Assembly (NCBI RefSeq): GCF_024521635.1
Contig: NW_026250411.1
Location: forward strand, 558,001-622,000
DNA: 64,000 nt
Direction of reading: 5' to 3'
From: Tricharina praecox
Taxonomy: Eukaryota
This document shows positions 14,643 to 64,000 of this stretch, piece by piece. The notes under the pieces were generated by a model. That model searched no databases. It saw only the letters and a program-made list of their open reading frames with translations, and was not told where the DNA came from. The stretch's first letter is position 1. Every line of letters starts with the position of its first letter. The translations under genes were made by a program, and so were the position numbers.

Positions 14643-14810
14643 TACAGTTAGAGCTAGCTACTTAGTTTCATCTGGTTATCTGGTTATCTGGGTTTATTTT
14701 TGCGCGGAGTTGAGATGGGGATTTGGTTTGTTTTGGGCATAGATGATTGAGGTATTGAGGTATATAGAAAAAGGAACTAGACAAAAATTGGGTCTCTAAC
14801 CTTATTCACA

Positions 14811-14883
14811 GCCTCGCTAGCTCAATCGGTAGAGCGTAAGACTCTTAATCTTAAGGCTGCGGGTTCGACCCCCGCGTGGGGCT
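14811..14883 (+). tRNA. tRNA-Lys(CTT), no intron
   Basis: Cloverleaf with acceptor GCCTCGC/GTGGGGC, D-arm TAGCTCAATCGGTAGAGC, anticodon arm TAAGA-CTCTTAA-TCTTA and T-arm GCGGG-TTCGACC-CCCGC. Confidence 0.96.
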
Positions 14884-14899
14884 GCGTATTCATTTTGTG

Positions 14900-57243: not shown

Positions 57244-60200
57244 TTAAAGACCACCCAAAGCCCTGTAGAATCCCTCCCTCGCCCAGCATCCTGAATCCTC
57301 AGTTAATACATTACCCCTGATTTCGATCGCCTCACGCTGGCAGAGCCATTGGATGACATCCAGGGACTCTTTCAGCGTCAAACCCGGACACAACATCTTC
57401 GAAATCTCGCGCGGGTGGATACCAGGCCGTCCAGTGATCATCGAGAGAACCGAGGTAACAACACGGAGCCACATGCCCTTGATAACGTTGCGGTTCATGT
57501 CGATCCAGATACGCATGGGTTCAATCGGGTTGGCAGGATTCTTCCCTTCCGGTGTCGGTGGAAGCGGGGCAACTACCGGTCGTTCGAAGTAGCTGGGTTT
57601 TAACATTATGAAAACCTTGAAGTCGACCATGTGCTTCGGCATCGAGCGAGTTTCGTAGCCGTCAACCAGTCCCATCGCATTGGCTTTGTACTCGCGTTTT
57701 TCGAGGCGCACCTGTATGAAAATTAGCTAATGCGAAATAAGAAAATAGATTGATCACATACCCGTCCATTAGCAACCAAATCAAAGATGCACGCCACCGA
57801 TCCGTCATTCAAAAATGGCGAAAGCTCCACGGCCTGTTGCTGAACAAACATGTTTTTGAGGTTGCGATCGAACTTGAGGGCCTGAGCAAACAGCTTTTCG
57901 TCCATAGGAGTACGCAGTGAGGAATGAAATTTATCCGTCAACTCGTAATTCCGACCAGGCGCAACGCGGTTGTGCTCCTTGCGGTGAGCGACGACCTTGT
58001 TACTGTTCAATTCGAAGAAAGCCTCGTCTACTGCATCCTCGGGCTGTTCGTGGATAAGCGCGAAGGCTTCGGCAGGATTGTAACTGGCAGCATCGGTGAT
58101 GACATTGGCCTTAATGATTGACTTGACGTAGTCAACCACTTCACTTGATTTGTTGATCTCGACTTCAGGACTGATAGGAACCTCGTAGGCATAGCACACA
58201 AAATGGTTGGCCCTATTGCCCATCGTAAAGGTCGGATTGTGATAGTCCGCACGCCATGTCGATGGTTTCTCCAGGCGAAGATTGTACAAGTTGTCGAAGA
58301 CTTCCCGTTTAGCCGAAAGTTCAGGAACAGCATGAGCCCTGGAAATATTAGCACCAACTCCCGGTGTAAGAGGGATAGCAACTTACTCAGGGAGCTCAAG
58401 GTTGTCTCGGAACCACTTCACATGGAGTGGCAGATCAAAACTCATGGGGTCCTTGAGATTGATTACCGGTAGCTCATCATTAGCGTAAGCCTCAAGGTAC
58501 ATCTCCTCGAATTCGGATTGAAGCTTCTTCAAGTGAGTCTTATGAACGTCGCGTACTCGTGGCCAACGGCGTTGCAGAACAACCGGTAAGTGCTGGGGTG
58601 TAGCCTTCCTCACGAGGTCCCAGTTGATCTTACGGTCAACATTGCCAAAGATGGTCCGGACAATGATCACGGCAATCAAAAGGGTGTCTTCGTCTTCCTT
58701 CGGAATCGTGTACTTATTCCTATACCTCCAGTCCTTCCTGGCATGCACTACTGTAAGTTAGCATCATTCGCTATTAATCGAATCCGCCAAACTTGCCTTC
58801 CTGTTCCTCATCAACTGTTTCAAGCGTAGTGGTTTGGTGAATAGCGGCCATTGCCTGCTGGCGACGGGAAACTGTCGGCTCCTTCTGTAATACCCTTCTT
58901 CGCCGTCTCTTTTTGCCAACCGGCGGCGGACCACCGTCATCTTCCTCTACACCAGTTAAGCTTGCGATTCTAGCTCGAGGCCTGGGCACAGCCATGTACA
59001 GGCTAGGGCGCCCAACAGTCCTCTTCACTCCACCTGTCTTGGAGACAGTATTTCTCACGATGTGCTCCATAGAAGGCGGCACCTGGGAAAAGTCCTCGCC
59101 AACCTCCACTTCAGGTCCAAAGTGATTGATCATAACGAGGCCGTCTTCCTTTGCCGGATTAAGCGACTTATCATATTTATTCAGCATTTCCCAATTTCGG
59201 ACGTCCTTAATATCTTTAAGAAGAGAAATAGAGGAAGGACGCTGAACGAAGTCTTCCCACCATATCGTCTGAGGGCCTGTATCTTCCTCAGCTTCGTCGT
59301 CCATAGGTCCCTGAAACTTGTGTCGCAGCTTGTGGATCTTGTTGCTGAGCTCTGCCTTTCTTCGACGGGCCTCTTCTTTCTGCTCCTCGGTGAACTTTCC
59401 GGTGTAATGTGAGATTATGCCGCTCTTCTTCAAGGCACGCATCTCCTGCCGCACCCGCTTCTCCTCAGCCTTCTGGGCATTCTTAACGGCACGTTCTACC
59501 GCTCTCTCTTCGCGCTGTTTCTTGATATTCTCCACAGAAGTCGGATAGATCCTGTCGAACTCGGTCTCTTCGATGGCACTCTGCGGCGCTTGTACCCAGG
59601 TATTCGTCGGATTCAACATTTTCTCCTTCACCTCTGGAGCCAAGTCAACTCCTGGTGGATACCAAAGACCTCCATCAGCAGCCTTCATCTGTCTAACAGC
59701 CTCGGCAATCATCGGGGACTCCATCGGTATTTTGATATCTACCAAGAGCTTCTTGGTTGTGAGAATTCCTCGTCCGTTTAGGAAGCTGAAGGTGAATTGG
59801 TTGATTTTGCCTTTGTATTGAAGTGACTGAACGACACCGCGAACAAGCCGACGATCGGCTATTCCTGCCTTCGGATTCCTTTGTCTATACTTCTGGTTGA
59901 AGGCGTGGCGAAGCTCGTTACCACCAGGGAAAACCCCATCGTGCTCCGCCATCAAATCCAGGACCACTTGCTGGCGACCAAGGGCTAACATTCCGCCAAT
60001 GGATCCGTAGGAGTCGTTGTCACCTTCCTCGAGACCCTCGTTTTCGACAGGAATGCCATCAATATTGAACACAATCTTCGGCTCCGGAGCAAGCGGCTCA
60101 GGCTCTTTCTCGGGCGCCGCTTCGATTTTCATTGGAGTGTTTACGGGCTCTGCCATTGGCGACGGTTCAGGGATCCTTCCTGCCCCTCCAGAAACAATCT

Positions 60201-63200
60201 CCTGTGGCCCAACGACAACCGGCTCACCCAATGTTTCAAGGGCTTCGGGAGCTGGTGCATCTTCCATCGGAACATCTGTAGGCTCTTCTAGCACAAGGGG
60301 CACTTGAGCGTTGGTGTCAGGGAGTGCGTCAGCCCGACTACGCTTGTCTGGAGCTGACTCCGCGGGGGGTGGGGAAACGGCCTTGCGCTTTCGTGTGGTC
60401 CTTGGGGTTTTGGGTGTTACTGTCCTGGGTGTTGCGGTTTTGCGTGGACGGCCCTGCTTTACAGGCGCTGGGGTAGGCGTGGCATCGACAGACACAGGCG
60501 CGGTGACATCCGGATTTGCTTCTTGAGAGGCTTGAGGAGTGACTGGGGGTACAGTGGCCTTAGAAGTTTTTGTCGCCCGAATCGCCCGTTTTTCCTTGCC
60601 TTTCGCTGCGGAAGAAGCTGGAGTTTCTGGTACCTGGAAGTCTTGAAGTGGTGTTTTTGATGCCTCGGGGACTCCAGCTGGGGCTTTTGATTCCTGGGTG
60701 CCTTGAGCGGGGGTTGCTGGTGTAGTATTTGCTTTAGTCGCCGCGGCACGGTTTTTCGGGGGGCGTCCTCGGCGCTTGGGCTCAACGGGAGTACCATCGT
60801 CTGTCTTCTGCTTCTTCGGTGGTCTTCCGCGACGCTTCGGTGTTGGCACGGGCGTTTCCGTCGTGGCGTCTTCACCCTCTCCATTCCTCGGGTTCGGTGA
60901 TTCCCCTGCTTCTGTTGCCGCTGCTTCGAGAATCGCTTTCCGTTTTTTGGCAGAAAGATACGGCTCCTCTCCCTTCGGATATTTGCGGGGTCGGCCAGTA
61001 CGAGCTTTTCCATCCAATAAGTTTTAATTCTCGGGGGGAGGAGGGAGAGGTAATCAGGAAATTGCACTCACCAACGCCCTTTTTCCAGCCAGGTTTCCCC
61101 GTCATTGCCGCCGTATTCTCCTTACTCTTACCGACATTCGAACTGTCGGCCAGGCTGGCAGAGCCATCTTTCTTGACCAGACGCCTCGTGGCAACAGGCG
61201 GAAAGCCGTACTCGTCGAGTTCTTCAACGGGCTCAGGTGACGGGCGTTCCGATGCTTCCGTTTGCGATCCTTTCTTGACGCCTTTCTTCTTTGATGTAAT
61301 CGCCCAAGGCTCAACAGCAAGTCCTTCCTTGACAAGCTGTTGATGCGATTCATAGCAGAAGTAGTGATAATGAGTCTGACGGTGAGTGATACTAGTCTCA
61401 CGGATAACAGCTAGATGGATATATTCTATTGGTTGTGATTTCGATGGAAAGTCGGTCATTCGATGCAAGACTTGATCCATTGGCCTGTAATAAAACGGTC
61501 CGATAATACGATGTACTACATCCTACAAGGATGAAGTCAGTAAATGGCTCATAGAACTCGAGAAGCAACACCTACCATGCTGGAAATCCCCTCTTTGCCG
61601 GCTCCCTTGACCAAGTTGTAGATAATGTTCGGCATCGGAACGGTCATAGTCCACCGTGGTACTTCTCGGGGAATCTTTTCAATGGCGTCAACATCCACGT
61701 GGGCCAGCTGCTCGTTGATGGCGTCAACATCCACGGCTTCGTCCTCCCGTTCTCCCTTTTCTTCCTCGGCGTCAGAAGCTTCATCCTCTTCTTCATCCTC
61801 CTCCCCAATCGTCATCTTCGAAGAATTTGCAAGCCTCCGCCAATCTTCGGCCGTTATGTCTCGAACAAACTTGATGCACCGCGCGTGGCATCGGACGGTT
61901 ACAGTGCCTCCTCCTTTCTTGTCATAGCTGCGATTGTTGGCCAATGGAACCCGGATTCGTTTCCACACGCCGAATGATTCAACTTTTCGGAGAATCCGGG
62001 AAAGAGAACGCCAGTGGAATCTGGAGCGGTCCATACCCTTACGTAGATCAGCATTCGATAACCAAATCGATTGGGAACGGGATTGCATACCAGCTTCTTC
62101 TTGAGATCACCTCTCTGTATAACACCATTTTTGGCATTCTTGAGTTCCGCGATGATAGCTCTGATCAAACTCTCCAGGTGAATGGTTTCGCCAGTCCATC
62201 GCTCGCTGCTCTTGCTGGATGCAGGTTTGCCCTTTAACCCACTGTCATCTTTGTGATCTTGTGCTAGTTTCCTGTCACGTAGATAGGCAAATTTCGTGAG
62301 CGTGAGCTTGCTCGTGTTCATGCTTTTGGCCAGAACAGCGACCTTCTCAATATAGCCCATTTCCTTGAGCAAGGTCGTCCGGCCAGCGATGGACTTCTTA
62401 TCTTGACCGGTGATCTTGGTAAGGTCCGGCTGGATCAATCCCTGTTCACGGTGCTTCCCAATCACCTCGAGACACTTGAAAACGGCGTTTGGCACCTGGT
62501 GGGAGATCAGCATACGATCACAACGAGTGATAAGGGAACAAAAGCTTACCCTCTTCGGATCCGGGCCATGGCCTGTAAGTGTCCGCCACCGACGATCCTC
62601 GCTCGCATACACTCGGAGATTGGCGTCGTCCTTATTCTCCCTCCATTTGTCGACTATTTCTCCCAGTGACATACCCCGGGATTCGTTTTTTGGGCCGACA
62701 TTGAAGTCCTTCTGCTGTCTCAAAAGACCCCAGACATACTCCTGGAATTCTTCCTTGACGTTTGGAGTCCCCCAACACTCAGCAGCGATGCGGTCTCTCT
62801 CAGCAGCAGCTTCATCGCCGTCGCCAGCCATGTCCTCATCTCCGTCTTCTTTTCGACCCTCCAATTGATCGGCCCAGAGAAGTTCACCAACATAATGTCG
62901 CTCCTGACGGCTTTTGACATAGAAGTCATTGACGTACTTGAATAGCTCCTCGACGTCAGTGCCTAATAGTCGCAAAATTCATATCAGCACTAACTCGGTC
63001 GGATCGCACGAAACTAGACAGTGATAAATATCCCAAATCGGTGCCGCTTTCAAGTCTCGAACCTATCACATTCCCAAGGGAAAAGTGACAAAGCGAGCAT
63101 TCAAGCAGCCACGTCCCAACAGGGTAATGTGTTTGGGTTCACACTAGAACCCAGTAGCGTCAAACTGTAACCAGAATGTGAAATTTTGCGACGGGAGATC

Positions 63201-63383
63201 GCGATGTTGATGATGGCATTGGTGAGCAGGCATGCCCCACCACTGCATCTCGATTCCTTTTTTTATTTTTCGCCACAGAAAAGCGACTGCAACGAGAGAG
63301 AACATGAAAAAATATAACATACCTTCAGCACCATCAATGGCGACCTCTTCGAGGACGTAGTTCAATAGAGCTTTCACACTCAT
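57244..63383 (-). CDS. TFC3: TFIIIC B-block-binding subunit (Tfc3/Sfc3/tau138), multi-exon
   Basis: N-terminus LLNYVLEEVAIDGAEG, RVYASEDRRWRTLTGH, B-block_TFIIIC motif FKCLEVIGKHREQGLIQPDLTKITGQDKKS, GVFPGG and RIWID..RPGI. Confidence 0.88.
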
Positions 63384-63489
63384 CGCGGAGCTTTGAGCAT
63401 GGGGAGATTGAGTCGAGAAGTTGTAGGGATGGTGTAGAAATCGAGATGTGTGTAGGAGGGTGAAGAGTTAAAAGTAAAAAGGATGGTGG

Positions 63490-63500
63490 GGAATCGAACC
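63490..63500 (-). promoter_or_regulatory. Isolated Pol III B-box (GGTTCGATTCC) upstream of TFC3; candidate extra-TFIIIC (ETC) site
   Basis: Plus strand GGAATCGAACC reads GGTTCGATTCC on the minus strand, matching all fixed positions of GGTTCGANTCC. It is 107 bp upstream of the ATG, with no tRNA cloverleaf around it. Confidence 0.7.
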
Positions 63501-64000
63501 ACCACTTCCATGTCACATGCTTGTGCTAAGTAAGCGACAATTTGTGTTACCCGGTGAAAGGTGGTTTAGCTAGTGCAAGAAACGAGGCTAGAGCTTTCTA
63601 TGATATCAGAACCCCACCAGCCAGTCCCCACTCTCTCCATTCACGCGAAACAAAACAGCAATGGAATCTACTATCGTATACCCCCGAGTGACAATCCAGT
63701 ACTGTACTCAATGCAAATGGCTTCTCCGTATTTATTTCCTGTGATCTCAAGCTTTCGATCGGACAATTCTGATGGCTTCGTACAGGCGCCGCATATGTAA
63801 GATCCGGACGAGCTGCTTGTTAAAAGCTCATGCACTGATTGTAGAAGTTTGCACAAGAGCTACTCTCCACATTCTCGACTTCGCTAGGTGAAGTCTCGCT
63901 CCAACCCTCGACCGGAGGAACCTTCGTGGTGAACATCTACCACAAAGAAGACACTTCCTCGAGCGAGGTGACGACTACGAATTTGTGGGATCGTAAGACA

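Follow-up and report, generated by a model that had tools for sequence, protein, structure and literature searches.

Why is the first intron of TFC3 so long? TFIIIC opens all tRNA genes, and most of what is known about the control of its amount comes from a single promoter in yeast. In the window (the whole stretch of DNA analysed here, 64,000 nucleotides in length), the initial annotation drew attention to a densely structured intron in the gene for a TFIIIC subunit, and read it either as a splicing switch controlling TFIIIC levels or as the home of an unannotated noncoding RNA. We consider here which elements of this intron are kept among relatives, and what role they may have.

Gene structure and orthologous introns

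TFC3 lies on the - strand, with its ATG at 63383. Coding exon 1 (63323..63383, - strand) consists of 20 codons and 1 nt, and the N-terminus matches the public protein P0003. The product, which matches a Tricharina praecox protein, carries PF04182 B-block_TFIIIC (E 3e-20), as is proper to the B-box-binding TFIIIC subunit. Spliced TFC3 contigs from two runs, X1 and X2, both presumed to be RNA, were placed on 61000-64000; two further runs, X3 and X4, did not cover the intron, which is uninformative. The X2 contig skips an intron with CT..AC ends on the + strand, and this is the productive form of intron 1 (62963..63322, - strand; GTATGT..GCTGAT..TAG); it is exactly 360 nt long, as first annotated, and the frame is kept when it is removed. 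The GCTGAT motif (62983..62988, - strand) is the presumed branch point. Translation likewise reproduces the 79-aa product that had been given for retention of the intron. The statement that most introns here span 45-90 nt agrees with the three other TFC3 introns (53-54 nt), a comparison that covers those three. A genome search with intron 1 at E<=1 gave 1 match, so the intron is single-copy and does not have the multiple copies of a MITE or introner. Further downstream, P0003 ends at 306 aa, apparently by way of a wrong intron 3 acceptor (62037-62089, - strand); both spliced contigs have a 53-nt intron at 62037-62089 and then continue for more than 5 kb, so the public TFC3 model looks truncated.

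A single metagenome scan yielded 13 orthologous TFC3 loci, all from one series of metagenome records; no fungal TFC3 was found in viral_contigs or genome_contigs. Intron 1 is in view at 12 of the loci (10 distinct), L010, which starts in exon 2, being omitted from the counts. At all 12 it follows codon 20, the same position as in the window, and is 317-348 nt long, while intron 2 is only 48-70 nt in the nine genes measured. Relatives of the product come from Geopyxis and Morchella, which we take to be Pezizomycetes, as we do Tricharina. The evidence for conservation comes from just four deep lineages, given here with their protein identity to the window: the window with L004 and L005 (76-91%), and three outer groups, L002/3/12 (62%), L006-9/11 (47%) and L013/14 (44-45%). 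Divergence is near saturation, with fourfold-degenerate sites identical between the window and the outer groups in 9/27, 10/26 and 7/23 cases. Among ten pairwise local alignments of introns, only window-L005 and L005-L006 beat shuffles, and the second of these (p 0.005) means that the lineages are not wholly independent. In a protein tree of 17 rows, built without L013/14 and P0043, the L006 group branches outside the clade that contains Geopyxis; the distance of L013/L014, which are absent from the tree, rests on protein identity. Comparison at this depth indicates that intron 1 is a conserved feature and probably a regulatory one.

A B-box motif in the intron

The B-box consensus is given as GWTCRANNC in PMC4228148. 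Intron 1 holds a weak match, GGTTCGAGACT (63053..63063, - strand; 9.4 bits), 100 nt before the acceptor, and a second box stands in the promoter; both fit the consensus, and the letters that vary are its two free positions. The scoring matrix was built on 19 tRNA genes out of the 63 listed for the genome. The sense-strand core, GTTCGANNC, is present in 11 of the 12 orthologous introns (9/10 distinct), the form in L005 being degenerate; in the eight introns measured, the core and the acceptor are 89-134 nt apart. All three lineages outside the window's group have it, although their introns are barely alignable with the window's. The genome contains 2600 copies of the core per strand in 38.36 Mb, or ~0.023 per intron, so that its occurrence in the three outer lineages would have a chance probability of ~1e-5, a figure that assumes independence and refers to a short motif of 9 nt noticed after the fact. 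Of 386 background windows, 0.8-3.4% score as well as the boxes of the outside lineages, and 3.9% as well as the window's intronic box.

In the close group, the flanks of the box (0.60-0.73) are no better conserved than intron 2 (0.58-0.79). Among eight introns from the lineages compared, the only shared 3' letters are a CG two bases after the core, found in 7/8, that of L005 with its degenerate box included. An A(A/T)TACC motif (63123..63128, - strand) lies 49-65 nt before the B-box and is common to the window, L002, L004, L005 and the L006 group; it is absent there in L013/L014. On these comparisons, the best-conserved element of intron 1 is a DNA-type B-box motif, not an RNA fold. Searches of the open-licence literature brought up no account of a B-box within a TFC3 intron, although supplementary alignments of B-boxes at TFC genes may bear on novelty, and the initial annotation had passed over this box, the promoter box and the 80-nt splice described below.

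The introns of L005 (L005:3062-3409) and L006 (L006:701-1017) share an aligned stretch of 40 nt, in which the L006 B-box falls ~20 nt downstream of the window-group box. This offset in register hints at turnover of the B-box site, and the box may occupy different homologous places among lineages.

A second box in the promoter

The promoter box, GGTTCGATTCC (63490..63500, - strand; 16.6 bits), lies 117 nt before the ATG in a divergent intergene; the X2 contig begins downstream of it, with its 5' end at 63446. Further copies of the box occur in L002, L004 and L005 and, in a weaker form, in L014, which with the window makes five of the nine loci scored. In the window, the promoter and intronic boxes score 16.6 and 9.4 bits respectively; the corresponding values are 15.8 and 13.3 in L004, 16.6 and 9.7 in L002, and 12.6 and 13.1 in L014. 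L005 has 16.6 bits in the promoter and none in the intron, L006, L009 and L011 have none and 14.0, and L013 has none and 13.1, on a promoter scan that covered just 220 nt upstream. Each of the nine loci holds at least one box of 13.1 bits or more.

The two copies appear to trade off against each other. At loci with a perfect promoter box, the intronic copy scores lower and its flanks have no special conservation; L005, with a perfect promoter box, has lost the intronic one. Loci with a weaker promoter box or none have a strong intronic box (13.1-14.0 bits at L006, L009, L011 and L013, the loci lacking a promoter box), and its flanks are 92-94% identical as against 56-69% for intron 2. This pattern points to a role in DNA, since a site in a promoter would hardly be expected to work through RNA. 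Of 15 sense cores counted over nine loci of 4.7-7.4 kb, 13 are placed between -261 and -91 or between +250 and +298 relative to the ATG.

The intergene has further features. Two words upstream of the promoter box (63509-63554, - strand) are kept in L004 and L005, namely CCGGGTAA (63547..63554, - strand), which we take to be Reb1-like, and CATGTGAC, presumably Cbf1-like; TTACCC/GGGTAA sites occur in 7/9 promoters scanned. A T5 run follows the window's promoter box by 9 nt (63476-63500, - strand), with T5-6 at the same spacer across four lineages. The pattern of box, spacer and T run resembles the end of a tRNA gene, and in its exact form occurs once in the genome; there may be a tiny Pol III unit at the promoter box. 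The divergent neighbour (63630-64000, + strand) is a member of the Rdx family (SelT/SelW/SelH-like; PF10262, E 5.7e-09) and has an 11-nt micro-exon at ~63786-63796, seen in contigs of both runs. Elsewhere in the window is a tRNA-Lys(CTT) gene (14810-14885, + strand), one of many copies on the contig.

Splice forms and RNA structure

Intron 1 is also spliced in a second way. One X1 contig, whose short side is 22 nt, joins the same donor to a proximal CAG acceptor (63245-63243) and so removes an alternative intron of 80 nt (63243..63322, - strand); the remaining 280 nt are retained in the mRNA, where a stop at 63162 leaves a product of 47 aa. The contigs show presence only, and hence give no ratio between the two forms. 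The proximal acceptor may be cryptic, as it has no consensus branch motif and its AG is missing in L004 and L005, the nearest relatives.

One explanation of the long intron is that RNA structure governs this choice: a helix would hide the branch point and acceptor, and a factor that opens it would set the ratio of productive to stop-bearing mRNA. The unproductive form does exist, and the four stems originally described can all be found in the window. Helix (a) is a perfect 11-bp inverted repeat of 63182..63192 with 62969..62979 (both - strand), the second arm lying between branch motif and acceptor, and it is strong, with pair probabilities of 0.82-1.0 across ten pairs within the 280-nt 3' part. 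The MFE structure of the transcribed strand contains hairpin (b) (63043..63109, - strand), which is confined to the window's close group and has the B-box in its 3' strand rather than in a T-loop, hairpin (c) (63134..63153, - strand; 7 bp) and hairpin (d) (63195..63257, - strand), which contains the proximal acceptor and covers the least conserved part of the alignment. The transcribed strand of the whole intron folds at -110.3 kcal/mol (z -2.80, 0/100 shuffles equal; z -2.16 for the opposite strand). The window's fold is thus modestly better than chance, whereas eight orthologous introns, with 40 shuffles each, give z from -1.81 to +1.02.

Further relatives bear on the helix in both directions. 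For three groups of introns, RNAalifold predicts a helix over the branch/acceptor region in every one; the helices of the L006 group and of L013/L014 each show a single double change, and L002 has a 3' tail duplex of its own (p 0.007-0.07); on such models, a helix near the acceptor across lineages is possible. Helix (a) itself recurs in the two closest relatives with 92% of cells paired, 8 one-sided changes and 0 double changes. Covariation does not rise above the shuffle control, the observed value being reached by 500, 225 and 233 of 500 shuffles. When 3' tail duplexes were compared with 300 shuffles in ten introns, p<0.05 was reached only in the window (1/3 tail lengths) and L002 (2/3), and the intron bodies of other lineages often pair with a given 3' tail equally well or better. 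The energy needed to open the stretch from branch point to AG is above the shuffle mean in 5/5 introns, yet with p 0.12-0.39. Helices chosen by eye in distant orthologues do no better than shuffles, and a covariance model of the close group (3' 236 columns) matches, among eight loci, its training sequences only. The orthologue z-scores, the opening energy and the covariance model all argue against dense structure as a conserved feature of the intron, and there is the additional difficulty that the proximal AG is not kept in the two nearest relatives and that no ligand is apparent. We therefore consider a switch of this kind unlikely, and the RNA stems at most a secondary aid. What stands of the splicing switch first proposed is a conserved, probably regulatory intron with an unproductive form seen in one contig; the dense structure on which it was based is not conserved.

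Proposed autoregulation of TFIIIC

The reading that we favour, at a probability of roughly 60%, is that the two boxes are candidate TFIIIC sites whereby the complex limits its own DNA-binding subunit, a case of negative autoregulation. Intron 1 would be kept long by the putative TFIIIC B-box that it carries, with a second in the promoter. When plentiful, TFIIIC would occupy these A-box-less boxes and reduce the output of its own largest subunit, hindering Pol II initiation at the promoter box and slowing or stopping Pol II at the intronic box, ~100 nt before the productive acceptor. In the window's lineage, the promoter box would be the strong site and the intronic box the weak one. Autoregulation is favoured by the presence and conservation of the motifs, by their being specific to this locus, by the identity of the gene as given by PF04182, and by the precedents of ETC6 and Polr3e-MIR; what we infer beyond the sequence is TFIIIC binding, repression, the slowing of Pol II and a link to splice choice.

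A further step seems rather doubtful, namely that Pol II stalled by TFIIIC would favour the weak upstream acceptor, leading to decay of the mRNA and to feedback on the TFIIIC level. The branch/acceptor helix would perhaps assist this effect of Pol II delay on splice choice. In such a version, splice choice would be thrown by a DNA-bound Pol III factor. The intronic box also offers a natural way of asking, through a change of one base, whether TFIIIC by itself slows Pol II and alters the choice of splice site.

The same boxes could also be ETC-type TFIIIC sites that serve in nucleosome positioning, in insulation from the highly expressed divergent neighbour or in tethering within the nucleus, and that exert no feedback on the level of TFC3. 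ETC sites do have other roles, such as peripheral tethering (PMC3395662), and the promoter box here stands between TFC3 and the divergent Rdx-family gene (contig depth 355-692). Such a role would account neither for the presence of the conserved site at the gene of the subunit that binds B-boxes nor for its location within an intron. The 5' regions of the three other TFIIIC genes compared, TFC1, TFC8 and TFC7, have no B-box, and a B-box match in BRF1 falls in coding sequence. An ETC role without feedback is in our view improbable.

Noncoding RNA and other readings of the intron

The second proposal of the initial annotation was a noncoding RNA within the intron. Such an RNA would be transcribed by Pol III or processed from the intron, perhaps as the remnant of a tRNA, and the B-box would be its internal promoter. 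In favour of this, in the introns of L013 and L014 (L013:282-613, L014:2157-2479), a block of ~90 nt around the B-box lies between two T6 runs and is 93% identical, and L014 can be aligned, loosely but collinearly, to a tRNA-Lys gene (p 0.10). T runs also follow the box in 6/8 introns. However, no T5 follows the window's box, and in L002, L006 and L009 a T5 run precedes the box by 23-24 nt. There is no A-box above background (best A-like scores -9.9 to 6.1; background 90th percentile 6.7) and no shared structure, and similarity to tRNA has p 0.10-0.89 in seven introns, which speaks against a fossil. As for known classes, Rfam at E<=10 gave nothing in the introns of the window (60000-64000 searched) or at seven orthologous loci, and ARAGORN found no tRNA at the window intron and none at 12 orthologous loci. 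A hosted RNA is accordingly quite improbable, and an intronic RNA of a known class is supported by no Rfam, tRNA or C/D box match.

Several narrower candidates were rejected. A box C/D snoRNA was dismissed, there being no exact C box in 9/9 introns and no conservation of the one-mismatch matches; a telomerase template is absent from the introns; and a mimic of the tRNA T-arm is contradicted by the B-box forming just 2-4 of the five stem pairs in eight introns. For a box H/ACA snoRNA, the indirect results are the lack of an Rfam match and of a shared fold. An Sm-like word is present in 5/9 introns at unrelated positions. The block common to L013 and L014 has a D-arm-like hairpin and a loose likeness to tRNA-Lys, and near the 5' end both loci have the word ATGAGTCA, presumably Gcn4-like.

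That intron 1 is an ordinary long first intron, its motif a matter of chance and the 80-nt splice noise, would suit the weak box of the window, the loss of that of L005, the single contig with its 22-nt side and the unregulated non-productive acceptor of S. cerevisiae TFC3 (PMC3983031), but it is very improbable against a length held at 317-360 nt next to an intron 2 of 48-70 nt, and a motif kept by three outside lineages despite synonymous divergence at saturation (~1e-5 if independent).

Comparison with known systems

The proposed feedback by TFIIIC on TFC3 can be set beside four systems described elsewhere. In plants, the gene for TFIIIA has a cassette exon, P5SM, a conserved mimic of 5S rRNA that is bound by L5 (PMC3378873). 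TFC3 likewise encodes a Pol III factor and contains a segment that is alternatively spliced and carries a stop; unlike P5SM, it has two competing acceptors, a fold that is not conserved and no tRNA T-arm. An RNA mimic of the P5SM type was rejected: the early-stop splice form is present (one contig, 22-nt side), but a conserved structure mimicking a Pol III product is absent.

The same gene in S. cerevisiae has a non-productive 3' splice site whose product is an NMD substrate and makes up 27% of spliced product; this site lies 17 nt downstream and was unresponsive to the stresses tested (PMC3983031). An alternative unproductive acceptor is therefore common to both, but here it lies 280 nt upstream of the productive one, not downstream.

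In Polr3e-MIR too, an element of a Pol III promoter is conserved within intron 1 of a Pol III machinery gene, and a roadblock and negative feedback are proposed for it. The MIR lies antisense to its host, with its A and B boxes 25-26 bp apart, and is a SINE that Pol III transcribes (PMC5358760), while the TFC3 box is sense, B-box only and single-copy. A nested Pol III unit of this type was rejected for TFC3, the box being on the sense strand, with no A-box, and not a SINE or tRNA-derived repeat. In Yeganeh et al. (PMC5358760), the roadblock is credited to TFIIIB or Pol III, not to TFIIIC alone, and only the antisense MIR element worked in a reporter, which counts against a TFIIIC-only box in sense orientation.

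The fourth system is ETC6, a B-box with no tRNA gene at the promoter of S. cerevisiae TFC6, where binding and repression have been demonstrated (PMC3334521). Of the sequence features of ETC sites, the boxes of TFC3 have the consensus, the conservation and the absence of an A-box or tRNA gene, and are predicted TFIIIC sites; the yeast ETC consensus has in addition a 10-base 3' extension (PMC3395662). The intergenic, divergent placement of ETC sites fits the promoter copy and does not fit the intronic one. As at TFC6, a gene for a TFIIIC subunit has at its 5' end a B-box that belongs to no tRNA gene and is conserved in relatives, with the promoter copy in a divergent intergene. The differences are that the two copies at TFC3 seem interchangeable and are candidate sites of binding and repression, that the gene is TFC3, and that its more widely kept copy lies in intron 1, in transcribed DNA. 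If our reading is correct, the feedback known from ETC6 would recur in another TFIIIC subunit and in DNA that is itself transcribed.
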